Source of the DNA: Candidatus Kapaibacterium sp. | GTDB taxonomy: Bacteria > Bacteroidota > Ignavibacteria > Kapaibacteriales > JAEUSM01 | Length of the DNA stretch: 64,000 nucleotides | Assembly (NCBI GenBank): GCA_016788785.1 | Contig: JAEUSM010000017.1 | Span: 317,670 to 381,669 of the forward strand | Direction: 5' to 3' | Shown: positions 1,996 through 60,025 of the stretch, one piece after another | Layout of the letters: every line of letters starts with the position of its first letter | How positions within the stretch are numbered: the stretch's first letter is position 1 | Notes under the pieces: model-generated | Seen by the model: the letters and a program-made list of their open reading frames with translations, nothing else | Told to the model about the DNA's origin: nothing | The model's database searches: none | Position numbers and translations under genes: made by a program

Positions 1996-4230
1996 TTAGC
2001 GAATGATAGTAAACAACAAAGAAGAGTGATGTTGTCCATGTCGTAAACTTGCAATGTAACTACCTGAAGGTAATGCTGGAATTGCAACTTCGCCAGTAAT
2101 TGGTAACGATGACACAGTAAAGACTTGTTCACCTTGCAATGTGTGAATAGTTACTACAGGAGATGTAGATGTTTTAGTATTATATCGAATTTTATTACCA
2201 ACAATACTTATTTCATTTGAACGGTTTTTTGAACCTTCTACTACAGATGTTCCATCAGAAAGGAAAAAGATTTCAACCCTCTCATCTGACGCATAGGATG
2301 CATCTTTGTACGCCAATGTGGTCCATAATGAAGTATTCGTTCCCGTTGTTACAATTGCCAAACCTTCTGGAATACCACTTGTAGTAAATTCTTTTTTGAC
2401 TTCATCGGTTCCCAAATTGATTGTAAAAATGTCACCAGAATACGCAGAAGTATATAGAGTGTTATCTAATAAAACAGATTCTCTCGGACCTGAAAAACCA
2501 GTGGTTGGAATGGCAAATCGTTTTTCTACTTCTTTTGTTAACAAATTGAATTTAACCACTTCTTGAGAACCATTCATTGTAACAAAGGCAATATCATCTT
2601 TGATAAAAAAGTGATTTGCAGTGTTACCAATATCAATAGTATTTGTTTCACCGTTCTTGTAAACGGTTAATGAACCATTTGTAGCATTTGCTGAAAATTC
2701 ACCTTCATTCATCACTACAAATGCTTCCGACCCATCAGATAATGAAACTGTAGCTGTGCTTTGTGGAAATTTTCCTGTAGCGATTTGGTTGTATTTTACA
2801 CCGTAACTTTCTTTCGAACGAATACTAGCAAAAAACTCATTTTCACCAGTTTGAGTGAAATAGGAAGTTTTAAATGGGGTTACGTAATCATTTACTAACT
2901 CTAATCTTTTGGTTGTGTACGATCGAATAGTATCATTACAAGCAACATAAAGAAATTTTTTGGTTGGGTCAAAGCTGCAACGTGTTGGAAATCCTAATGA
3001 CGACCAACCCAAGTTCACACTATCTATATTTGCAAAAGCAAAAGTAGTATCTGTAAGCGTTCGTATATCGTACTTGTAAATCCATGCTTCTGAATCTTCA
3101 GGGTCTTGTATCGTATTAAAGTTCTTATCAACTCTATTAAACACAATAAAGAGTGTTGAATCAATTGTTAGAAGTTGTGAAGGATTGTAAGGCAAATTAA
3201 AAGAAAAATCCATTATTTGATTGTTGCGAATCACTCCTAATTTTCTTAGATTGATGGGTTTATCGGGATCGTCGAAATCAGTACTCATAGGACTATTAAT
3301 GTAAAAATAATCTTTAACATAAGCAATTGACTCAACTTTTTTCGTTTCTGGAAAAGCAATAGTATGAAGCATCTCACCACTCTCTAAAGAAAAAACTCGG
3401 ACATCACCTGCGTATGTTGTCGTGTATATTAATGTTGAGTCAACAGTTGTAATTATAGATTCTCTTGGTCCATCAAATCCTGTCGTTTGAGTAGAAATCT
3501 TTTTTTCGATTTTCATTTCAGAAAGTGAGAATACTACAATTTCGTGTGAACCATTCATCGTAATATAGAGCTTATTTTCATATTCAAAAATATGATTGGC
3601 ACCCTTTCCTAAAGGATAAACTACTTGCGAATTGTCAGTAAGGATGGTTAAGTAAGAATCGTCGGTCGTTGCACCAAAGGCTCCTTCATTAATAAACGCT
3701 ATGTACTCCTTATTTGGGCCACATCGAAGAGCTTGTTGGATAAATGTACCTGAGGTATATTTTGATATTTTGTACGCAGTTTGAGATGCAGTATTTTTGT
3801 CTACAACACCAATCGTATTTCCATTGGTGCTAATAGAGCGAACAGGTATTTCTAAAAAAAGTGAATCTGAGATTTGCCCTGTGTTCAAATCATATTCAGC
3901 AATTGCATCATTTGTTGGAATGTATAATTTATGACTGATTTTGTCTATTCCAACCCGAATCGGAAATGAGTAGGACCTCCATGCAAATGTTGTTGAATCA
4001 ATCAATTCTTTGGTTTCAGCATTATAACGAAACCATTTTGCAGGTATATCACCTTCATCTTGTAAACCATTGAAATTAAAATCAATGGTATTGGTAAGAA
4101 CGTGTACAACCTTTTCATGTTGAAACACATGTAAAGGTTGTTTGCCAGTTTCAACAAATTGACTGGTTTGAGAAAAAAGATTTGATGTAATTATCAACAT
4201 CAAAGAATACAATAGTACTAAGTACTTCAT
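1996..4230 (-). CDS. Secreted tandem beta-propeller (YncE/BtuG-like) protein with T9SS-type C-terminal sorting domain
   Basis: Signal peptide; internal duplication with 327-aa offset (NEG..ANH..TMNGS.E..GF.GPRES..Y.GD occurs twice); C-terminal ~80 aa resembles a T9SS CTD (VTIHTLQGEQV...LPSGSYIASL). ORF track start is 4239; ATG at 4230 preferred because a GGAG SD lies upstream. Confidence 0.75.
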   Translation of the reverse strand: MKYLVLLYSLMLIITSNLFSQTSQFVETGKQPLHVFQHEKVVHVLTNTIDFNFNGLQDEGDIPAKWFRYNAETKELIDSTTFAWRSYSFPIRVGIDKISHKLYIPTNDAIAEYDLNTGQISDSLFLEIPVRSISTNGNTIGVVDKNTASQTAYKISKYTSGTFIQQALRCGPNKEYIAFINEGAFGATTDDSYLTILTDNSQVVYPLGKGANHIFEYENKLYITMNGSHEIVVFSLSEMKIEKKISTQTTGFDGPRESIITTVDSTLIYTTTYAGDVRVFSLESGEMLHTIAFPETKKVESIAYVKDYFYINSPMSTDFDDPDKPINLRKLGVIRNNQIMDFSFNLPYNPSQLLTIDSTLFIVFNRVDKNFNTIQDPEDSEAWIYKYDIRTLTDTTFAFANIDSVNLGWSSLGFPTRCSFDPTKKFLYVACNDTIRSYTTKRLELVNDYVTPFKTSYFTQTGENEFFASIRSKESYGVKYNQIATGKFPQSTATVSLSDGSEAFVVMNEGEFSANATNGSLTVYKNGETNTIDIGNTANHFFIKDDIAFVTMNGSQEVVKFNLLTKEVEKRFAIPTTGFSGPRESVLLDNTLYTSAYSGDIFTINLGTDEVKKEFTTSGIPEGLAIVTTGTNTSLWTTLAYKDASYASDERVEIFFLSDGTSVVEGSKNRSNEISIVGNKIRYNTKTSTSPVVTIHTLQGEQVFTVSSLPITGEVAIPALPSGSYIASLRHGQHHSSLLFTIIR

Positions 4231-4411
4231 AAGAAACACTCCAAAAAGGATAAAAATATGTGTGAGAGAGTGTTAGGCTTGAGACTGTTAGATACTGGGC
4301 TAACAGTTTTTTGAAGAATTTTTGGAAGGAATTAGTATCTTCAATATAGGCTTGTACATCTCTCATCGCATCTGTTGTCGCAGATGTTGTTAATAAAAAC
4401 AGTATGATGAG

Positions 4412-4592
4412 ATCCAGTAGGCAGGTCTTCCGGCTTAGGCGTCATCTGAATTTTTTCACCTTCCCACAGAAAATGTAGTGGTGTGCTTCCAAAGCAGATA
4501 AAAATTCATCAGCCAATACGGCGGCGCAACCGCGTGGGATTTACACCCAGCTTCCCTATTCTCCAATACTTCTATTGGCACCTAAGGATATT
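4412..4592 (-). ncRNA. Cobalamin (B12) riboswitch
   Basis: Minus strand reads AGGTGC...AATAGGGAAGCTGGGTGTAAATCCCACGCGGTTGCGCCGCCGTA...CCACTAC...GTGGGAAGG...AAGCCGGAAGACCTGCC, containing the conserved GGGAA, GCCACT-like/GGGAAG and B12-box (AGCCGGAAGACCTGCC) elements; located 5' of a BtuB-like operon. Confidence 0.93.
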
Positions 4593-4655
4593 TTCTTTAA
4601 AACGTCTTTTCTTATCTAGTATTGTTAATTCTGTTTTTACAATCAATAATTATAT

Positions 4656-5552
4656 ATGAAACCAAAACTACTTCTGCATGGTGGTGCGGGAAATTTCGAC
4701 AAAAATACAATGTCCTCAGATGAGTATTCCATCCGATTGGAAACTATGAGAGAAGCTCTCAAAATTGGATATGCAATTCTTGAACGTGGTGGTAATTCCC
4801 TTGATGCTACTGTTGAAACGGTAGTTCATTTAGAAAACTCTACCTACTTTAATGCAGGAAAATCAGGAGCTCTGACATGGAATGGAGTTGCAGAATTAGA
4901 CGCATCACTTATGGATGGAGCAACTAAAAATGCTGGATGTGTTTCGAATGTTACTCACATCAAAAATCCCATTCTTCTTGCAAGAGAGATTCTCAATTCA
5001 GAGCATGTTTTTCTCACGGGTTTTGGTGCTGAAGAATTTGCACTTCAACGAGGTGTTGAATTTGTATCGCAAAACTATTTCATCACAGAAGAAAATTTGT
5101 CAGATTTGGAACGCGTGAAAAAAGCGAATAAAGTAATTTTGGGTACAGTTGGTGCAGTCGCCTTAGATATTCACGGTCAATTAGCCTCCTCTACTTCAAC
5201 GGGAGGGATTATGAATAAACGTCCTGGAAGGGTCGGAGATACGCCAATTATTGGTGCTGGTACCTATGCTGATTCGACAATCGGAGCTATATCTGCTACT
5301 GGCCATGGTGAGTATTTCATTCGCTCAGTTGCTGCCTTTTCTATCATTACTCGAATGCAATATTTGCACGAAGATATAAACCTTGCAACGAAGGAAGTAT
5401 TGAATCAAATTCTTTCGATGGGTGGAACAGGTGGTATTATCGGAATTACTCCACTTGGGGATATGACATTAGAATATACTACTCCCGGAATGCAACGTGG
5501 GTTTGTTGATGAAAACGAAATTTTGGTGGGAATTTTTGAGGAAATGGAGTAG
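4656..5552 (+). CDS. iaaA: Isoaspartyl peptidase/L-asparaginase (Ntn hydrolase)
   Basis: LLLHGGAG, FNAGKSG, ELDASLMDG, autocleavage GTVGAVALD, STSTGG, GRVGDTPIIGAGTYAD, TGHGE. Confidence 0.92.
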   Translation: MKPKLLLHGGAGNFDKNTMSSDEYSIRLETMREALKIGYAILERGGNSLDATVETVVHLENSTYFNAGKSGALTWNGVAELDASLMDGATKNAGCVSNVTHIKNPILLAREILNSEHVFLTGFGAEEFALQRGVEFVSQNYFITEENLSDLERVKKANKVILGTVGAVALDIHGQLASSTSTGGIMNKRPGRVGDTPIIGAGTYADSTIGAISATGHGEYFIRSVAAFSIITRMQYLHEDINLATKEVLNQILSMGGTGGIIGITPLGDMTLEYTTPGMQRGFVDENEILVGIFEEME

Positions 5553-55076: not shown

Positions 55077-55629
55077 AATCGAGATTAAATCGTTTGATAG
55101 TCCACTGTGCAAGAAAATAGCAAAAATATGCAATGCAAACCCCCACAATAGCACCACCTAACACATCAAAAAAATAGTGAACTCCGACAAACATTCTTGA
55201 AAGAGCAATAAGTGTTGCACAGGAAAAACTTAGGAGTGCTAACCGTCTATAAAACAACGAAAAGACAGTAGCAATGGCAAAACTATTCGCAGCATGGGTT
55301 GAGGGAAACGATTGACCAACACCACATTCGACTAACAGATGCACTCCTTGTAAAGCTCTGCAAGGTCGAACTCGTTCAAATGCAAACTTCAAATACCTAC
55401 TTGTTAATGGGTCAACAACTACAAAAGCCAAAAGAATTGTTAATAAACACACAATACCAATTTTCTTTTGGCGAATGAGGTAAATGCACAATAAAAGATA
55501 GATAGGAATCCATGTAATGGGTGAAGTGATAAGAGGCATAACCCAATCAAAGACTGGATTAGAAAGTGTTTGATTGAAAAAAAAGAAGATGGACTGATCA
55601 ATGTGTTGTAGTGATTCAAGAAAACTCAT
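55045..55629 (-). CDS. PAP2-family phosphatase
   Basis: K..FERVRPC, SFPSTHAANS, SRMFVGVHYFFDV; ATG 55629 overlaps upstream stop (ATGA). Confidence 0.9.
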   Translation of the reverse strand: MSFLESLQHIDQSIFFFFNQTLSNPVFDWVMPLITSPITWIPIYLLLCIYLIRQKKIGIVCLLTILLAFVVVDPLTSRYLKFAFERVRPCRALQGVHLLVECGVGQSFPSTHAANSFAIATVFSLFYRRLALLSFSCATLIALSRMFVGVHYFFDVLGGAIVGVCIAYFCYFLAQWTIKRFNLDSNQTVNQSPT

Positions 55630-57113
55630 GTAATCATTCCAAGCTCTTTTTGTTCTTCTTTGTAACGTAAATAGGAAATAATGGCAATTCCTATACAAAC
55701 ACCTCCAATGTAATTACCTTCACGCATAGAAATTTGGTTAGCAGTCATTGATATACTTAGCATTGCAAGAAGAGTTCCAGCAGAAACTAAAGCAAAATAC
55801 ATTGTGTAGGTGTTTTTAGTTTTTCTTGCCACATAAAATCCAATGAGTACACTTGAAAAAAACGGAAAATAAATCAGAAGTGCATGTGGAATCCCGAATT
55901 TGAACGCAGCGTATAAATACCCATTATGTGCAAAAGTATAATAAACAGTGTGTTTTTCTATCATATCGTAATAATGATACTTTGCCCCCAAACCATAGCC
56001 TCCCAAAGGAGACTCAGAGATTCTATTTAACAACAACCCTGATTCTTTTACACGAACCAATATAGATAAGTCTTGACTTGCTTTTGAACTCGAGGTAAAT
56101 CTTTTTCCAACCATCGTCAAAGCGGTTAATGCCTTTTCCTGAAAAAATAAGAATATTCCGCTACCCAAAACAATGACAGTACATAAAGAAATCACGGTTA
56201 TAAGGATTTTGTTTTTCTTTGGTAAAAAGAAAAATGTTGCCGTAAAGGCAATGATAAATCCTAACCAATATCCACGTGTGAATGTTGATACTAACGCCGC
56301 AAACACAACGACAAATATACAAAATAAGAACATCTTTACTCTACGGTTTTCGAAAAGTGCAATTCCTAAAATAGATATGATACATCCAAATACGTAGACT
56401 AATTCGTTGAGTGCATTACGTGCAGATACAATTTGCCAAGCATATACTGCCAAACTGGTGGTTTTGGTATATTTATAAATCGAAAATCCTGATATACCTA
56501 ATGATACAGTTAACCAAAAAGCTAAAAGAGTCATTATTTGCTTTTCCGTTTTAAAAAGTTCTTTAATAGGAAATGCATAAAGAAGAAAAAAGAGTACTAA
56601 CCATTCACTGAGTATCTCTTTAAGAGTGGTATCGACATTAAAGAAGAACCCAAGGATAAAAGAAACAAAGGTCAATAGAATAGCGGTTAGGAGGACACCA
56701 TCTATGACCGTAGAGACTATTTTGCGCTTCAAAAAGAAGATTCTGGAAATAAACCAAACTGCCAAAGAACCTACGTAAAAAAGGGCAGTAATTACCTCAA
56801 AAGGTGTTGTTTCCTCCGACAAATCACGAAACCAAGGGATTGCTAGTAACGTCGCAAAATAAATCCAAAATCTTGGATTTATAAAAAAACCATACACCAA
56901 CGGAATTCCCAAAATTGCTGCCAACGCAAAAAGTTCTAACTGCAGGTGAATAGCACCAATAGCAAGGGCTAAAAAAGCAATCACATACAAAGGTATTTCC
57001 CAAATTCGAGGAGTAAGGGTAGAAAATGCCGACAGTGATAGTTGGTTTGGAGATAGGTTCATTTTATTGAAATAGAATGTACTTCCTTTGAACGTAAAGT
57101 ACGGTGTTTTCAT
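55626..57113 (-). CDS. O-antigen ligase (WaaL-like) family membrane protein
   Basis: ~12 TM; STFTRGYWL, SILVR, ESPLGGYGLG, AHNGYLYAAFKFGI; start 57113 or 57062. Confidence 0.8.
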   Translation of the reverse strand: MKTPYFTFKGSTFYFNKMNLSPNQLSLSAFSTLTPRIWEIPLYVIAFLALAIGAIHLQLELFALAAILGIPLVYGFFINPRFWIYFATLLAIPWFRDLSEETTPFEVITALFYVGSLAVWFISRIFFLKRKIVSTVIDGVLLTAILLTFVSFILGFFFNVDTTLKEILSEWLVLFFLLYAFPIKELFKTEKQIMTLLAFWLTVSLGISGFSIYKYTKTTSLAVYAWQIVSARNALNELVYVFGCIISILGIALFENRRVKMFLFCIFVVVFAALVSTFTRGYWLGFIIAFTATFFFLPKKNKILITVISLCTVIVLGSGIFLFFQEKALTALTMVGKRFTSSSKASQDLSILVRVKESGLLLNRISESPLGGYGLGAKYHYYDMIEKHTVYYTFAHNGYLYAAFKFGIPHALLIYFPFFSSVLIGFYVARKTKNTYTMYFALVSAGTLLAMLSISMTANQISMREGNYIGGVCIGIAIISYLRYKEEQKELGMIT

Positions 57114-57116
57114 GTA

Positions 57117-57280
57117 AATTGTCTGAACCGCTGATTACATTGATGAGGATGATGAAGATGATGAGGATTGTCTGAACCGCTGATTACATTGATGAGGATG
57201 ATGAAGATGATGAAGATGATGAGGATCGTCATAACCGCTGATCAAAGTCTGAACCGCTGATTACATTGATGAGGATGATG
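57117..57280 (+). repeat. Left repeat array: three identical 34-nt units plus one partial unit with GAT/GAN tracts
   Basis: GTCTGAACCGCTGATTACATTGATGAGGATGATG at 57121-57154, 57170-57203, 57247-57280; partial GTCATAACCGCTGATC at 57228-57243. Confidence 0.97.
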
Positions 57281-57310
57281 TGAATTTGTTGTTATTTACT
57301 TGAATTTTAG

Positions 57311-57318
57311 TATTTTTG
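57311..57318 (+). promoter_or_regulatory. TAnnTTTG -7 box for the GxxExxY gene
   Basis: TATTTTTG 28 nt before ATG 57347; TTTG at 57285-57288 as a possible -33 element. Confidence 0.5.
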
Positions 57319-57346
57319 ATTTTTTGGAGTTTCTAACGTTGTTAAT

Positions 57347-57748
57347 ATGATAAAAGAAGAATACAAATATTCTGATATAACCTCGAAAATTATAGGTTGT
57401 TCTATGGAGGTTCATAATATATTGGGTACAGGTTTTCAAGAAGTTATCTATCAAAGAGCATTAGCAAATGAACTTTTGTTAAAGGGAGTTTCATTTGTCA
57501 GAGAATATGAAATGCCTATCTTTTATAAAAACGAACATATTGGGACAAGAAGGGTTGACTTTTTAGTAGAGTCTGTTGTGTCTGTAGAATTGAAAGCAAT
57601 TTCACAATTAGAAAATGTTCACTTTGCTCAAGCATTAAATTATTTAGAGGCTTACAATTTGGAAATTGGATTGATAATTAATTTTGGGGCTAAAAAATTA
57701 GAATATAAACGACTTATAAACCCCAGATTTAAACCAACTCACTCTTAA
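57347..57748 (+). CDS. GxxExxY protein (PD-(D/E)XK nuclease-like fold)
   Basis: LGTGFQEVIYQRAL (GxxExxY), RVDFLV..VELKA (D...ExK), AQALNYL, GLIINFG; 133 aa. Confidence 0.93.
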   Translation: MIKEEYKYSDITSKIIGCSMEVHNILGTGFQEVIYQRALANELLLKGVSFVREYEMPIFYKNEHIGTRRVDFLVESVVSVELKAISQLENVHFAQALNYLEAYNLEIGLIINFGAKKLEYKRLINPRFKPTHS

Positions 57749-57846
57749 TCATCTTCATCATCCTAATCTGTGGTTCGGACTTATTTTATCATCCTAATCA
57801 TCTTCATCAAAGGTTCAGACAATCTTCATCAATGGTTCAGACAATT
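57746..57846 (-). repeat. Right repeat array, inverted relative to the left array
   Basis: GGTTC(A/G)GAC at 57772-57780, 57812-57820, 57834-57842, each preceded by ATC/ATN tracts. The reverse complement reads TTGTCTGAACCATTGATGAAGA, TTGTCTGAACCTTTGATGAAGATGATTAGGATGAT, GTCCGAACCACAGATTAGGATGATGAAGATGAT. Confidence 0.93.
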
Positions 57847-59992
57847 AGTAATCTATCGTCGCAATGATTTCTAATTCAGAATCAGACGGTATTTCGGTGA
57901 AACTAATGACATTTATCATAGGGAAAGAGCCATGAAGCATTCGGAAAAGATAAGGACGAATTGTTGCTGGACAAATAATTAATGCAGAATAACCAGAGAG
58001 CGTTAATTCATCTGAGGCATTTGTTACAGAATTGTAGATTGCCTCTAATACTTGTGGTGAGAATCCTAACGACGGCATTGTTGAAGCCTGTGGGTTTTGT
58101 TGGAGCGTTTGAACCATTGCTTGTTCTAATCTTGGTGCAACAGACGCAGCATGAATCACACCGTTGTGATCTTGATACAAGCGTTTGATGGTTTCAGAGA
58201 GATTATGACGAACATATTCGGTCAATACCTCTACATTCTGCGTTACTTTTACATACTCCAATAGAGACTCAAGAATGATAGGCATATCACGTATTGGAAT
58301 TAACTCCCGTAACAAGTTTTGTAAAACTTTCTGTACTATACTAATGGGTAGTTGTTCATTTGTCACTTCATCAATAAGTGCAGCATTGTGTTTTTTCACA
58401 TTATCCAGTAATTGACGAACTTCTTGTCGTGTCAACAGACGCTCTGCATTGCGACGCAGAATTTCTGTCAAATGAGTTGCCAACACTGTAGCTGGTTCTA
58501 CGACTGTGAAACCCATTATCTCTGCATGTTCACGGTCTGATGGCATAATCCATGTTGCAGGAAGAGAAAACACTGGTTCGGTTACTTTCAAACCACGTAA
58601 ATTGCCTTCAGCAGAACCAGGGTTCATTGCAAGAAGTCGTCCTGGATAGAGTTTATTTCGAGCAAATTCGTTACTACGAACCTTTATCACATATTCTTCG
58701 GGGTCTAATTGCAAATTGTCACGAACGCGTACTGGTGGTAAAATGAAACCTAATTCTGTTGCTAATTGTCTTCGAATATTTGTGATTCGTTTGAATACAT
58801 CTCCACCTTGATTTTGGTCAACTAACGGAATAAGTCCATAACCCAGCTCTATTTCAATAGGATCGATAAAGAGCAAGTCTTCAACAGGTTGTTCTTCATT
58901 GGTTAGTTCATTCGAAGGAGGAAGAGCTTGTATTTCCTGAATGATGGCCAAACGTTTTTCTTCATTTATTGCACGATAACGAAAATAAGCAATAGTACCA
59001 GCAATAGAACCGAGTAATACAAAAGGAATGATTGGAAAGCCAGGAATCAATGCAAATAGAAACAAAGCACCAGAAGAAATTGCCAAAGCACGTGGTTCTT
59101 TTCCAAACTGCATTCCCAATTCGGATTCTAATGCTTCTCCAGATGCAGAACGAGTAACGACCAAACCCGCAGCTACTGAAATCAACAACGCAGGAATTTG
59201 CGACACTAACCCATCTCCAATTGTAAGAATCGTATAGGTGCTGAGTGAATTTTGGAAGGTCATCCCTTTTTGAGCAATCCCAATGGTAAATCCACCGATG
59301 ATGTTGATAGCAGTGATGATGAGACCTGCAATAGCATCTCCTTTTACGAATTTGGAAGCACCATCCATTGCACCAAAAAACTCTGCCTCTCTCCCGAGAT
59401 TTTTACGTCTTTTACGAGCTTCTTGTTCGTCGATAAATCCAGAATTCAAATCAGCATCAATACTCATTTGTTTACCAGGTAAGGCATCTAAGGTAAATCT
59501 TGCAGAAACTTCAGCAATTCTTGATGATCCTTTGATGATAACTACAAAGTTTACAATGATTAGCACCAAAAAGATTATCACCCCAACAACATAGTTTCCT
59601 CCCACAACAAAAGTTCCAAATCCTTTGATGATATCTCCAGCTTGACCTTGAGATAGAATAAGTCGGGTCGAGGCAATATTGAGCCCTAATCGTAAAAGAG
59701 TAGTAATAAGAAGAACAGTAGGAAATGAACTAATATCTAATGGAGATTTGATATAAATAGAAACCATTAAAATCAACACCGAAAGTGTTATGTTAACAGC
59801 TAAAATTATATCAAGTAAAAATCCAGGAAGTGGAATAATCAGAAGTGCAAGAATAAACATTACCCCAAATCCTACTAAAAGGTCAGGATTTTTTTGCAAC
59901 AAAGCCCATAACGACGCTGGGTCGTACTGTTGTCTACTTGAACGTTGGTTGCTTTTTTGTGGAGTTGCTACGGTTATATCTTGATTCGCCAT
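57845..59992 (-). CDS. flhA: Flagellar export gate protein FlhA
   Basis: FPTVLLITTLLRLGLNIASTRLIL, RIAEVSARFTLDALPGKQMSIDADL, FFGAMDGASKFVKGDAIAG, GDGLVSQIPALL. Confidence 0.96.
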   Translation of the reverse strand: MANQDITVATPQKSNQRSSRQQYDPASLWALLQKNPDLLVGFGVMFILALLIIPLPGFLLDIILAVNITLSVLILMVSIYIKSPLDISSFPTVLLITTLLRLGLNIASTRLILSQGQAGDIIKGFGTFVVGGNYVVGVIIFLVLIIVNFVVIIKGSSRIAEVSARFTLDALPGKQMSIDADLNSGFIDEQEARKRRKNLGREAEFFGAMDGASKFVKGDAIAGLIITAINIIGGFTIGIAQKGMTFQNSLSTYTILTIGDGLVSQIPALLISVAAGLVVTRSASGEALESELGMQFGKEPRALAISSGALFLFALIPGFPIIPFVLLGSIAGTIAYFRYRAINEEKRLAIIQEIQALPPSNELTNEEQPVEDLLFIDPIEIELGYGLIPLVDQNQGGDVFKRITNIRRQLATELGFILPPVRVRDNLQLDPEEYVIKVRSNEFARNKLYPGRLLAMNPGSAEGNLRGLKVTEPVFSLPATWIMPSDREHAEIMGFTVVEPATVLATHLTEILRRNAERLLTRQEVRQLLDNVKKHNAALIDEVTNEQLPISIVQKVLQNLLRELIPIRDMPIILESLLEYVKVTQNVEVLTEYVRHNLSETIKRLYQDHNGVIHAASVAPRLEQAMVQTLQQNPQASTMPSLGFSPQVLEAIYNSVTNASDELTLSGYSALIICPATIRPYLFRMLHGSFPMINVISFTEIPSDSELEIIATIDY

Positions 59993-60025
59993 AAGCAAAT
60001 ATACGTGTTTTTAGGGGATAATTCT

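Follow-up and report, generated by a model that had tools for sequence, protein, structure and literature searches.

A GxxExxY nuclease-like gene enclosed by inverted iteron-bearing arms: a candidate REP/RAYT-like module found across bacterial phyla

Introduction

Proteins of the GxxExxY family (PF13366/TIGR04256) are catalogued as being of unknown function (PMC3424549) and are seldom mentioned in the searchable literature; the family is large, and 15,500 clusters at 50% identity match it at E ≤ 0.001. In the window (the whole 64,000-nucleotide stretch of DNA analysed here), one such gene lies between two inverted arrays of short repeats at the junction of two host genes. Do the gene and the repeats form a single unit, and, if so, is that unit a mobile element? 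The original prediction, made from the sequence alone, proposed that the repeats are cis-acting recognition or cleavage sites for the encoded protein and that gene and repeats, lacking a DDE or HUH transposase, together make up a compact and possibly mobile unit, as RAYT does with its REPs. We analysed the cassette in the window together with 80 related genome loci from many phyla, of which 74 were testable for arms.

Structure of the cassette

In the window, a 724-bp cassette fills the space from the flhA stop codon to the O-antigen-ligase-like gene (Table 1). The anatomy given in the original prediction held in every part: three identical 34-nt left units and a partial one, three inverted right units of GTCYGAACC + GAT architecture, a perfect 13-bp outer inverted repeat, and a 133-aa ORF with GxxExxY and D...ExK motifs, a TAnnTTTG box and a stop codon within the innermost right repeat. 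The exact-match count gave three copies of the 34-mer GTCTGAACCGCTGATTACATTGATGAGGATGATG on the plus strand (57121, 57170, and 57247), against 0 expected by chance, and the degenerate left unit was located as GTCATAACCGCTGAT at 57228. The tandem period of the left units was 49 nt with 98% matches, and the TGAT iterons of left unit 1 followed a 9-nt period. The right arm consisted of three minus-strand units built in the same way as the left units, with cores at 57772 (GTCCGAACC), 57812, and 57834. The 13-bp repeat AATTGTCTGAACC had two matches in the window (0.01 expected), its right copy being at 57834–57846, and 2 nt of the outer repeat are shared with the flhA stop codon (57845–57847, minus strand). 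The core 9-mer GTCYGAACC occurred six times in the 64 kb (0.37 expected), always in the cassette, and a looser motif scan of the 64-kb window revealed no further real copy, leaving a single cassette locus.

Table 1. Positions of the cassette, its parts and the adjoining host genes in the window.
Feature	Position	Strand	Description
Whole cassette	57120..57843	+	724 bp, TGTCTGAACC ... GGTTCAGACA; between flhA stop codon and leader of ligase-like gene
Outer inverted repeat, left copy	57117..57129	+	13 bp, perfect, AATTGTCTGAACC
Left unit 1	57120..57168	+	Core TGTCTGAACC, then GCTGATTAC, then TGAT iterons (GATGAGGAT / GATGAAGAT)
Left unit 2	57169..57226	+	Core of left unit 1; tract with one additional 9-nt iteron
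Degenerate partial left unit	57227..57246	+	CGTCATAACCGCTGATCAAA; 83% identity to unit head (repeat family D2)
Left unit 3 (innermost)	57247..57283	+	Core and iterons
Non-repeat leader	57284..57346	+	63 nt; contains putative -7 box TATTTTTG
GxxExxY / PDDEXK_3 gene	57347..57748	+	133 aa
Right unit 3 (innermost)	57743..57780	-	ATC-type iterons and core GTCCGAACC; includes final codons and stop of the ORF
Right unit 2	57785..57820	-	Iterons and core GTCTGAACC
Right unit 1 (outermost)	57822..57846	-	22-nt unit and right copy of the 13-bp outer repeat
flhA (FHIPEP)	57845..59998	-	Pfam match, E 1.6e-261; upstream host gene of the interrupted operon
Wzy_C / O-antigen-ligase-like gene	55626..57062	-	Pfam match and alignment to empty-site relatives; downstream host gene

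The stop codon of the GxxExxY ORF (TAA, 57746–57748) sits within the innermost right unit. The TAnnTTTG box (TATTTTTG, 57311–57318) in the leader of the gene resembles the Bacteroidota-type -7 element, and its promoter function is inferred. A scan for sigma-70 promoters and intrinsic terminators gave results at or below the shuffled expectation; Bacteroidota-type promoters are outside the coverage of the tool used. Alignment to empty-site relatives indicates that the ligase-like gene probably starts at its second Met (57062) and not at 57113.

Chance repeats, purely local slippage or an assembly artefact could in principle account for the arrays, since purine-rich 9-nt tracts of microsatellite-like sequence slip easily and the unit numbers vary between relatives. 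This explanation is all but excluded. The exact matches far exceed the shuffled expectation, and the core and architecture recur in dozens of genomes that are phylogenetically far apart. An assembly artefact is ruled out by an independent JGI metagenome contig (L004), in which both arrays are base-for-base identical. Four more assemblies encode the GxxExxY protein of the window.

The arms also affected the handling of sequence data. They break short-read assemblies, the Logan contigs stopping 96 nt upstream of the gene, and they create false N- or C-terminal extensions in neighbouring gene calls.

The GxxExxY protein

The protein encoded in the window matched PF13366 PDDEXK_3 (E 1.6e-37, 128.9 bits against a cut-off of 22) and TIGR04256 GxxExxY (E 4.2e-39, 133.5 bits against a cut-off of 35, model positions 1–116 of 116). 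The ORF contains the motifs GFQEVIY, RRVDFLV, and VELK. The first of these, G29-F-Q-E32-V-I-Y35 in the first long helix, was invariant among 40 aligned homologues, as were E32, D71 (RRVDFLV), and E81-x-K83 (VELK), so that the PD-(D/E)XK catalytic constellation is present. E32, D71, E81, and K83 are the predicted catalytic residues, the enzyme activity being inferred from sequence and fold. An AlphaFold2 model (pLDDT 88.6) predicts a PD-(D/E)XK alpha-beta-beta-beta-alpha-beta core fold, from which metal-dependent phosphodiester hydrolysis is inferred. The top Foldseek matches were Cas4 SSO0001 (E 3.9e-4), MGME1, lambda exonuclease, and Hjc, and RNA-splicing endonucleases were also among the matches with PD-(D/E)XK folds. 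The TM-scores were only 0.4–0.5, and the similarity is therefore at the level of the fold. No solved structure matched the protein when searched by sequence and profile.

The gene is under purifying selection, with dN of 0.056 and saturated dS in comparison with the relative L007 (dN/dS far under 0.1), and the selection on the window copy dates from before the split between the window and L007. Protein identities across phyla were 65–79%, which we interpret as horizontal spread. Carriage by phages was considered and rejected, because relatives numbered 0 in 50,697 phage records and 1 in 2.9 million viral contigs. PHROGs gave one weak match of unknown function.

Association of the arms with the gene across phyla

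The homologue loci share an arm layout of the core GTCTGAAC followed by TGAT iterons spaced approximately 9 nt apart. The core+GAT motif was present upstream on the plus strand in 63 of the 74 testable loci and downstream on the minus strand in 62; both arms were found in 56/74 loci and at least one arm in 69/74. Within 300 nt of the gene, the motif density was 2.67 per kb, versus 0.177 per kb elsewhere, a difference of approximately 15 times. These results show that gene and repeats are associated across phyla and support the predicted tie in cis between them. The consensus arms take in the ATG and the C-terminal tail codons of the GxxExxY gene, as was seen in several subfamilies, and only GxxExxY ORFs were found tightly enclosed by +/- arm pairs. 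One-sided arrays and tandem duplications were also present, and in two distant members (Fusobacteria and Prevotella) the flanking repeats were direct and not inverted.

The cassettes occupy junctions that are unrelated to one another, including flhA/ligase, fabD/fabG, radA, and hsdS. They were co-oriented with both neighbours in 55/80 loci and antisense to both in 1/80; the cassette in the window, antisense to its operon, is an exception. The distance from the right core to the downstream ATG was 2–5 nt in 20 loci, and the upstream ORF terminated in or beside the left core in approximately 26.

The distant subfamilies retain the arm layout with different iterons, which track protein similarity. 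A GTCTGAA(C/T) core with iterons of the GAT type accompanies proteins 56–68% identical to that of the window. In B. finegoldii and Bernardetia, whose proteins have 55% mutual identity, the shared iteron is CACAGAG. The Sphingomonas iteron is CGCGAAG, and the Gemmatirosa paralogues have GCAGAGG or CGCGGAT iterons despite the G+C-rich genome sequence. The iterons are phased, and their type co-varies with protein subfamily in hosts that differ widely in G+C. Neither this co-variation nor the co-orientation with the flanking operon was foreseen by the original prediction.

These observations bear on a second explanation, in which GxxExxY is a passenger or domesticated gene. It would be cargo or a host gene located between two hairpins, possibly a nuclease accessory to restriction-modification or defence loci, and the MITE- or REP-like hairpins would be moved in trans by an unrelated transposase or spread only by homologous recombination and slippage. 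In favour of this explanation, type I restriction-modification genes are enriched among neighbour ORFs (Methylase_S in 23 of 146, plus HSDR_N, N6_Mtase, RhuM, and Fic), the gene has persisted vertically for a long time under purifying selection, and the one-sided arrays and tandem duplications resemble slippage products. Against it, the iteron type follows the protein subfamily irrespective of host G+C, the tight enclosure is found for GxxExxY ORFs only, and in several subfamilies the arms incorporate the start and tail codons. In addition, the protein matched no family in the PADLOC defence-system models, the 25 Pfam families most frequent in the 146 immediate neighbours included no transposase or recombinase family, and no transposase or recombinase was called in the neighbourhood of the window cassette. 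We consider the passenger explanation unlikely.

The flhA/ligase junction in relatives and insertion footprints

An empty flhA-waaL site in relatives, which would be expected of an inserted unit, was found in two (L109 and L110), with a 70-nt intergenic spacer. Their empty site reads flhA-TAG + TGTCTTTCTT + ATTTACAAG, and the window, read from flhA to waaL, is TAA + T + the cassette + ATTTACATG. The empty site has TGTCT(T) in common with the element terminus, which is no more than suggestive of cleavage of the cassette-less allele close to the insertion point, as by a homing endonuclease. Other relatives hold a different insert at the junction, a Fic-like remnant (L089, L107, and their relatives). 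In L006, the cassette is antisense to the operon as in the window and differs in unit numbers. In L007, it is sense-oriented, with one unit per side and a leader of only 27 nt (63 nt in the window), and the outer cores remain with the flanks. The locus is therefore polymorphic for presence, absence and inversion of the cassette.

Inversion in situ is the likelier origin of the L007 orientation than independent insertion, because the flank-proximal parts of the arms match on the same side in the window and L007. Synonymous sites are saturated, and replacement by another copy is therefore not excluded. The inversion raises a third explanation, that the arms flank a phase-variable segment controlling the ligase-like gene and that the orientations in the window and L007 are the two states of a switch. 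The retention of the outer cores with the flanks and the surface-polysaccharide type of the adjoining gene are consistent with a switch. However, no invertase was called within approximately 10 kb, all five assemblies of the window genotype have a single orientation, and the two orientations belong to lineages with only 80–85% nucleotide identity. Moreover, 80 other loci of the same architecture exhibit a 55:1 orientation bias and no mixture. An invertible switch is thus very unlikely.

Host duplications flush with both ends of the element were found in L066 (56 nt), L046 (42 nt), and L067 (22 nt). In L081, a 32-nt duplication lies away from the cores, by 27 and 8 nt. No fixed-length target-site duplication was seen, adjacent 3-nt repeats being present in just 7 of 58 loci.

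Gene-less hairpins

The MITE-like gene-less copies that the original prediction suggested looking for do exist. The fetched loci contained 53 gene-less hairpins of 63–194 nt, some of which keep the first ~25 codons of the gene, and hairpins nested in hairpins were found in two loci (L092 and L113). The DNA folding of four gene-less hairpins was strong in all cases (z -3.8 to -12). In Gemmatirosa, two replicons each carried a hairpin in at least 39 places (at least 78 copies in all), versus three GxxExxY genes found on one of the two. This hairpin did not occur in other plasmid records. A plasmid BLAST search with an AT-rich hairpin of the main subfamily returned nothing useful, for which the short query and the low-complexity filter are possibly to blame.

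The hairpins permit a fourth explanation, an RNA-level module. In this case, the arms would pair in the operon transcript with the small ORF within a long imperfect stem, and the stem would be processed (for example by RNase III, or by GxxExxY as an RNase) or would gate translation of both the ORF and adjoining genes. The gene-less hairpins would act on mRNA stability in a REP-like manner, and DNA mobility would be secondary or otherwise driven. The co-orientation bias, the exact placement relative to the downstream ATG and upstream ORF end, the positions of the start codon in the left arm and the stop codon in the right arm, the stability of the hairpins, and the RNA-splicing endonucleases among the Foldseek matches all favour this explanation. 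On the other hand, the iteron sequence is conserved across phyla beyond the needs of pairing, and the iteron spacers showed no systematic pairing. Mismatches between the paired arms, read on the sense strand, were G:T in 52 and A:C in 112 cases, with no G:T excess; owing to the compositional skew of the arms, this test is uninformative and decides nothing either way. Rfam at the gathering score gave no match over the window cassette or over the 20 related loci scanned. Furthermore, the antisense copy in the window is still under purifying selection, and a process at the DNA level is in any case required to explain presence/absence, nesting, amplification and host duplications. We therefore regard the RNA-level module as unlikely.

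A permissive Rfam scan produced sub-threshold C/D-box and miRNA matches, which were dismissed as noise due to TGATGA and CTGA strings.

Discussion

We favour, as slightly more likely than not, the reading that the cassette in the window is one copy of a family-wide selfish, REP/RAYT-like module built on a PD-(D/E)XK nuclease. A compact unit without a DDE or HUH transposase is supported by most of the computational checks that the original prediction suggested, and active transposition is unproven. That the repeats are recognition or cleavage sites of the encoded protein remains an inference: there are no binding or cleavage data or other biochemical evidence, and binding, cutting and the route of movement by the GxxExxY protein are all inferred.

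The module would comprise a gene for a ~130-aa PD-(D/E)XK nuclease (GxxExxY) between two inverted arms, each with a terminal core (T)GTCYGAAC(C) followed by 3–4 short iterons ~9 nt apart, and with the start codon and C-terminal tail embedded in the arms. In the proposed mechanism, the nuclease, which is probably oligomeric, would recognise both arms by their phased iterons, which are those of its subfamily, the arms would be brought together by duplex synapsis or as a single-stranded-DNA stem-loop, and the nuclease would cut at or beside the conserved core. Host replication and repair would then process the breaks, with four possible outcomes. Copying into new sites at staggered breaks would leave flush host duplications of variable length; internal deletion would yield gene-less hairpins able to amplify; gain or loss of arm units would give the 3+3 arrays of the window; and inversion between the arms would account for the difference between the window and L007. 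PD-(D/E)XK enzymes are not known to carry out strand transfer and instead hydrolyse, and any movement must therefore borrow host repair. Surviving copies would be those placed precisely in the space from one stop codon to the next start codon and read with the operon, and would therefore be nearly cost-free.

Several observations count against the favoured reading. The purifying selection on the lone copy in the window fits a selfish gene no better than one that is domesticated or useful to the host. The co-orientation bias could indicate an RNA-level role, and the enrichment of restriction-modification genes could mean a defence-linked function and not selfishness. The direct-repeat flanks in the Fusobacteria and Prevotella members and the absence of a fixed target-site duplication also weigh against it.

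A bolder reading, to which we give rather less credence and which at present falls short of being probable, is that GxxExxY cassettes constitute a new class of mobile elements in prokaryotes. Each would encode only one protein, a ~130-aa PD-(D/E)XK hydrolase, and this enzyme would recognise phased iterons in the inverted arms around its gene. The autonomous copy would be hidden between operon genes, the hairpin progeny would amplify like REPINs or MITEs, and movement would proceed by nuclease breaks and host repair, not by transposase strand transfer.

Through its link with a defined, subfamily-specific DNA architecture, the GxxExxY family, whose function is unknown, acquires a role that can be tested. 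Should the nuclease drive the element, the cassettes would be a class of mobile element that uses none of the DDE, HUH, serine or tyrosine enzymes, and would account for a common source of intergenic hairpin repeats in Bacteroidota and other phyla. They would also represent a selfish gene that resides inside essential operons (flagellar export, fab, and R-M) at almost no cost, and a set of small, sequence-programmable nuclease/site pairs.

Comparison with known systems

No description of GxxExxY gene-repeat cassettes was found in the open literature, subscription-only papers not being covered. With no paper, Rfam family or solved structure found, the cassette is apparently an undescribed and very widespread kind of DNA element. 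It has partial counterparts in several known systems.

The PD-(D/E)XK "putative transposases" (PDDEXK_2/Rpn-YhgA-like) are tabulated in PMC3424549. Like these proteins, and like TnsA of Tn7, the cassette has a PD-(D/E)XK nuclease; those nucleases promote recombination or cut transposon ends. However, they are larger proteins or work with a DDE partner, their similarity to GxxExxY is restricted to the fold, and to our knowledge they have neither defined cognate iteron-bearing inverted repeats nor defined hairpin progeny.

The intervening sequences of 23S rRNA genes, with an S23p/four-helix-bundle ORF (e.g. in Coxiella, PMC4990558), are, like the cassette in the favoured reading, selfish inserts of ~0.4–0.7 kb bounded by inverted repeats and containing one small ORF, tolerated because the host product is not disrupted. 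They encode another protein family, are located within helices of the rRNA and are excised from the transcript, and iterons and dispersed gene-less copies are not described for them.

Free-standing homing endonuclease genes include PD-(D/E)XK types. As with the cassette, a small nuclease gene is wedged between host genes, depends on host transcription, is present or absent in close relatives, and spreads via breaks repaired by the host, although for the cassette the breaks and the spread through them are inferred. Homing genes, in contrast, have no terminal inverted repeats or gene-less hairpin progeny and return to one homologous site, whereas the cassettes occupy many unrelated junctions.

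IS/MITE pairs (especially those of the minimal IS200/IS605 type) resemble the cassette in that the autonomous unit is very small with structured ends and terminal inverted repeats, internal-deletion derivatives retain only the ends and amplify, and nested insertions and empty sites (here L109 and L110) occur. The cassette differs in having no DDE, HUH, serine or tyrosine enzyme, in lacking a fixed target-site duplication, with flush host duplications of 22–56 nt at a few loci, and in its strong orientation bias with transcription.

In REP/RAYT systems (REPtrons; REPIN-RAYT), a small, usually low-copy nuclease gene is flanked by inverted short repeats, gene-less palindromic doublets are dispersed or amplified intergenically, and the repeat type is matched to the protein lineage (PMC3116915, PMC3337134, PMC3733652). 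The cassette gene is similarly flanked by its own inverted repeats in the window and in the 56 related loci with both arms. Gene-less copies are many in Gemmatirosa and occur in many fetched loci, with the 64 kb of the window holding one locus. In regards to the differences, RAYT is an HUH Y1 (IS200-like) transposase, whereas the cassette protein matched PDDEXK_3/GxxExxY only (Pfam, NCBIfam). REPs are palindromes of 20–40 nt with GTAG/CGTC tags, whereas the cassette arms have a GTCYGAAC core and phased ~9-nt iterons. The start and stop of the cassette gene lie within the arms, the cassettes are flush inside operons and co-oriented, and the spread of GxxExxY is read as horizontal, whereas REPIN-RAYT is described as mostly vertical. 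In the reading that we favour, the functional logic would be that of a REP/RAYT or IS/MITE pair in which a hydrolytic PD-(D/E)XK nuclease replaces the HUH or DDE transposase.

Structure of the cassette and its host junction

The original prediction described two inverted repeat arrays enclosing one gene and took the repeats for cis-acting sites of the encoded GxxExxY protein, in the manner of RAYT and REP. The description held when we re-read positions 56700-58300 and ran repeat searches. The exact 34-mer GTCTGAACCGCTGATTACATTGATGAGGATGATG occurs three times (0 expected), and the 64 kb contain six copies of the core 9-mer GTCYGAACC (0.37 expected), all of them within the cassette. Each unit consists of the core (T)TGTCTGAACC followed by TGAT-bearing iterons with a 9-nt period (TGATGAGGA / TGATGAAGA), and the outer ends of the cassette form a perfect 13-bp inverted repeat. 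The single ORF between the arms encodes a full-length PF13366 (PDDEXK_3) and TIGR04256 (GxxExxY) protein, and its stop codon falls within the innermost right unit. Both flanking genes lie on the minus strand; the cassette therefore separates two co-directional genes and runs antisense to both.

Features of the cassette, its flanks and the window
Feature	Position	Strand	Remark
Cobalamin riboswitch RF00174	4403-4600	-	full-length; 88 bits, E 2e-20
Wzy_C / O-antigen-ligase-like gene	55626-57062	-	flanking gene
Cassette	57120-57843		724 bp
Exact 34-mer units	57121, 57170, 57247	+	left array
Degenerate unit	57228	+	left array
GxxExxY ORF	57347-57748		133 aa
Inverted units (three), same build	cores 57772, 57812, 57834	-	right arm
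flhA	57845-59998	-	flanking gene

The riboswitch was the sole Rfam family found in the window. A permissive Rfam search also returned many sub-threshold matches to archaeal and eukaryotic C/D-box snoRNAs (57136-57262 and 57767-57863), which scored far below the gathering scores and were judged spurious; C-box (TGATGA) and D-box (CTGA) strings are present in the arms. The mechanical start of the ligase-like ORF is 57113. Relatives without the cassette can be aligned only from the second Met at 57062 (MNLSPNQ..., minus strand), so the first 17 codons (57062-57113) are probably non-coding and cassette-adjacent DNA lengthens the ORF call.

An artefactual or chance origin of the arrays can be practically dismissed. 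An independent JGI assembly (L004) is identical to the window throughout the cassette, which rules out an assembly artefact. Logan short-read contigs carrying the window gene (L001-L003 and L005) all stop exactly 96 nt 5' of the ATG, within left unit 3. Exact 34-nt repeats break k-mer assemblies, and such cassettes would therefore often be located at contig ends and under-reported. The source organism is an uncultured Kapabacteria / Ignavibacteria relative; the closest named FlhA homologues are 65-68% identical, and the G+C content of the window is 34.8%.

Arms in the gene family

More than 8000 relatives of the window protein are present in the databases; many are 72-80% identical yet labelled Bacteroidales, Ignavibacteriales, Sphingobacteriales and others. 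An exhaustive search gave 15,500 family clusters at 50% identity. Using contigs that represent one genome per species, we retrieved 80 loci (Bacteroidota, Verrucomicrobia, Cyanobacteria, Dehalococcoidia, Calditrichia, Binatia, Desulfobacterota and one Leptospiraceae MAG) and aligned the 250 nt upstream of each gene with the reverse complement of the 250 nt downstream. Significant inverted repeats were present in most loci, with the constant core (T)TGTCTGAAC(C/T)nTGATT followed by more TGATT blocks at 8-9 nt intervals. Among the 74 sufficiently flanked loci, the motif was found upstream (+) in 63, downstream (-) in 62, on both sides in 56 and on either side in 69. Its density within 300 nt of the gene was 2.67 per kb, versus 0.177 per kb elsewhere. 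The predicted association of the repeats with other GxxExxY genes thus held.

The entire compact element is approximately 465 bp. Its left core lies 35-38 nt 5' of the ATG, and the ATG and first codons (ATGATTAAAGA, encoding MIKE) extend the TGATT tract. The right arm begins within the last codons, which indicates that the variable C-terminal tails (KSPESQKSN, NQRFRQ and others) are translated repeat. In the Leptospiraceae MAG, right-arm units form an array upstream of the gene, part of which is hidden by an N run (L086, 2774-2872).

Iteron type and the encoded protein

Annotated records of plasmids or chromids supplied distant members that share only 30-42% identity with the window protein. 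Their iteron period is also approximately 9 nt.

Flanking repeats of distant subfamilies
Locus	Host	Repeats
L100	Bacteroides finegoldii	TTCACCACAGAGGACGCAGAGGACACGGAG upstream, inverted copy downstream
L102	Bernardetia	iterons CACAGAGA
L105	Sphingomonas, fabD-fabG gap	TTCACGCGAAGGCGCGAGGACGCGAAG-ATG, inverted copy downstream
L112	Gemmatirosa paralogue 1	GCAGAGG iterons beside GGTTCAGAC
L106	Gemmatirosa paralogue 2	CGCGGAT iterons beside GTCCGAAC
L101	Treponema	inverted repeat ACACGGATTCG
L103, L104	Fusobacteria, Prevotella	direct, not inverted

Protein similarity, not host composition, predicts the iteron type. GAT-type iterons are common to the window, Chitinophagaceae and the second Akkermansia copy (proteins 56-68% identical), and CACAGAG iterons to B. 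finegoldii and Bernardetia (55% identical). Our case for a protein that reads the repeats rests chiefly on this co-variation; binding itself is inferred.

E32 (of GxxExxY), D71, E81 and K83 are invariant among the aligned homologues. The AlphaFold2 model (pLDDT 88.6, pTM 0.82) predicts a PD-(D/E)XK core, for which the best structural neighbours were Cas4 SSO0001, MGME1, a Spirosoma restriction-endonuclease-like protein, lambda exonuclease, splicing endonucleases and Hjc. Since TM-scores were only 0.4-0.5, the fold is assigned without a close solved relative, and sequence, profile and structure searches found no close solved structure. The lack of any additional DNA-binding domain in the protein speaks for recognition by an oligomer. 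Some family members of 250-295 aa contain two matched stretches (e.g. P0134, P0141, P0145 and P0179) and represent tandem-fused double GxxExxY domains, an arrangement that might suit dimeric or oligomeric action.

Gene-less and nested elements

Gene-less, MITE-like copies, as the original prediction anticipated, were found: 53 hairpin elements, 63-194 nt in length, are present in the retrieved loci, and in each a short loop joins a left arm to a right arm. Some still carry ~25 codons from the start of the gene (L021, 3470-3630; L072, 2897-3011; L063, 23-135), which indicates that these are internal-deletion derivatives. All four gene-less hairpins tested showed strong DNA hairpin folding (z -3.8 to -12), and the one-sided arrays of the window showed no folding on their own. 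Similar one-sided arrays are common (five units in L049, four each in L020 and L043, seven with a variant core in L070). As a reading of the cassettes as a whole, a module for RNA-level processing or translation is considered unlikely.

Nested hairpin-in-hairpin structures lie downstream of flhA in an unrelated organism (L092). In Gemmatirosa (L113), the outer and inner iteron types of nested hairpins differ, with no GxxExxY gene within 1.5 kb. There, a GCAGAGG-type hairpin sits inside the loop of a CGCGGAG-type hairpin (1440-1660), so several iteron families coexist in one genome. Two ~1.1-Mb replicons each carry the GCAGAGG hairpin in at least 39 separate places (an undercount), and it is absent from all other records among 72,556 plasmid records. 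By tblastn, three GxxExxY matches were found on plasmid 1 and none on plasmid 2; the only one translated (L112, 601-956) contains in-frame stops and is a pseudogene, with abundant cognate hairpins.

The flhA/ligase junction in relatives

FlhA-based and ligase-based searches recovered this junction in five lineages, for which nucleotide identities give the branching ((window, L006), L007), L109/L110, L107. The proposed mobility had called for a comparison with empty sites, and these are present in two independent assemblies, L109 and L110; the latter encodes an FlhA 98% identical to that of the window. The empty site reads flhA-TAG TGTCTTTCTT ATTTACAAG ... (70 nt) ... ATGAACC, and TGTCTTTCTT is replaced in the window by the cassette plus 1 nt. 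TGTCT(T), common to the empty site and the cassette, may be a target feature or a footprint, which cannot be distinguished. In L109, flhA (2783-4930) is split into ORFs of 116 and 540 aa by a frameshift or assembly error; it is intact in L110.

The window and L006 contain an antisense cassette with 3+3 and 3+1 units, respectively, and L007 (= L088) a sense-oriented one with a single unit on each side. The flank-proximal arm parts of L007 and the window are side-matched (TTGTCTGAACCGCTGATTACATTGAT on the ligase side, TGTCT(G/T)AACCATTGATGAAGAT on the flhA side), and an in-situ inversion between the arms is the simplest account. An invertible switch is considered very unlikely. Nucleotide identities between L007 and the window were 80% for the GxxExxY gene, 85% for flhA and 79% for the ligase gene; the divergence of the gene resembles that of its flanks. 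The dN was 0.056 against L007, with saturated dS, and 0 against L006, with dS of 0.125. These values indicate that purifying selection acts on the gene.

A ~760-nt insert occupies the junction in L089, L090, L107 and L108, with a TIR-like ...CATCTTTGTTCAGAT directly 5' of the ligase ATG. In this sister lineage, a frameshifted Fic/DOC-like gene (...HLILEGNGRTMRIW; L107, 4239-5000; L089, 4904-5667) takes the place of the cassette, and a GTTCAGAT remnant adjoins the ligase ATG in L107 and L089. Fic genes are repeated neighbours of GxxExxY cassettes at other loci too. This junction and restriction-modification operons appear to be shared landing sites for small hitch-hiker genes.

Genomic context

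Both neighbours are co-directional with the GxxExxY gene in 55 of 80 loci and both antisense in one, so the window is in the rare orientation state and L007 in the usual one. In the antisense copies of the window and L006, 60-70 nt of non-repeat leader include a Bacteroidota-type TAnnTTTG box; L007 has a 27-nt leader without that stretch. The box is a putative promoter, which fits the antisense placement.

The cassettes fit exactly between host genes: the downstream host ATG follows the right core at 2-5 nt in 20 loci (GTTCAGACAATG...). In ~26 loci the upstream host ORF ends inside the left core or within 12 nt of it, often with a TGA stop supplied by the core or by a TGATT iteron. Host DNA is duplicated flush at both ends in L066 (56 nt, from the ATG of the downstream gene), and flush duplications also occur in L046 (42 nt of the upstream hsdS 3' end) and L067 (22 nt). 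A 32-nt duplication in L081 is offset from the cores, and three more loci have weaker ones. No fixed short duplication was found at the insertion ends checked.

In the window subfamily, restriction-modification genes dominate among the 146 immediate neighbour ORFs (Methylase_S 23, HSDR_N 6, N6_Mtase 6, EcoR124_C 4 and HsdM_N 4), with RhuM and Fic as further recurrent families. It is an unlikely reading that the gene is a passenger, or linked to defence, and merely lies between repeats mobilised by something else; no transposase or recombinase family was among the 25 commonest of the 99 neighbour families. Other host junctions include fabD/fabG, radA and ade. Subfamily members at L008-L087 lie mostly inside type I (some IIG/III) restriction-modification operons, often directly 3' of the conserved ...QKAFSGEL terminus of hsdS. 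HsdS gains a few element-encoded residues where the element replaces the hsdS stop codon, as it sometimes does.

Proposed mode of propagation and comparison with known systems

On balance, we favour, without strong confidence, a selfish module, mobile at least in the past, that consists of a nuclease and its cognate arms. The nuclease would bind its own phased iterons on both arms, pair the arms and then cut within or close to the conserved core. Acting on the breaks, the replication and repair machinery of the host would yield new copies at staggered breaks and leave variable flush duplications. Breaks may also give internal deletions, whose hairpin progeny could be acted on in trans and amplify, and host repair may cause unit gain or loss and inversion. 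Selection would retain only copies flush between a stop and a start codon, reading with the operon. This specific route, cutting at the core followed by host repair, is inferred and remains no more than a possibility.

The system appears to be of a kind not yet described, with the reservation that subscription journals were outside our search; the literature searched contained no description of it. GxxExxY was mentioned there in three papers and PF13366 in two, each time only in passing, TIGR04256 and the longer repeat and iteron strings were absent, the 9-nt core strings occurred only in unrelated papers, and topic-level searches gave known REP/RAYT, MITE and IVS work only. Rfam has no family for the cassette in the window or related loci.

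The likeness to ORF-bearing rRNA intervening sequences is limited to size and tolerance. The cassette works like REP/RAYT and IS/MITE pairs but lacks the enzymes that define them (HUH and DDE) and differs from them in repeat design, intra-operon placement and cross-phylum spread. Free-standing homing endonuclease genes share its presence/absence pattern and reliance on host transcription, whereas only the cassette has arms and progeny.
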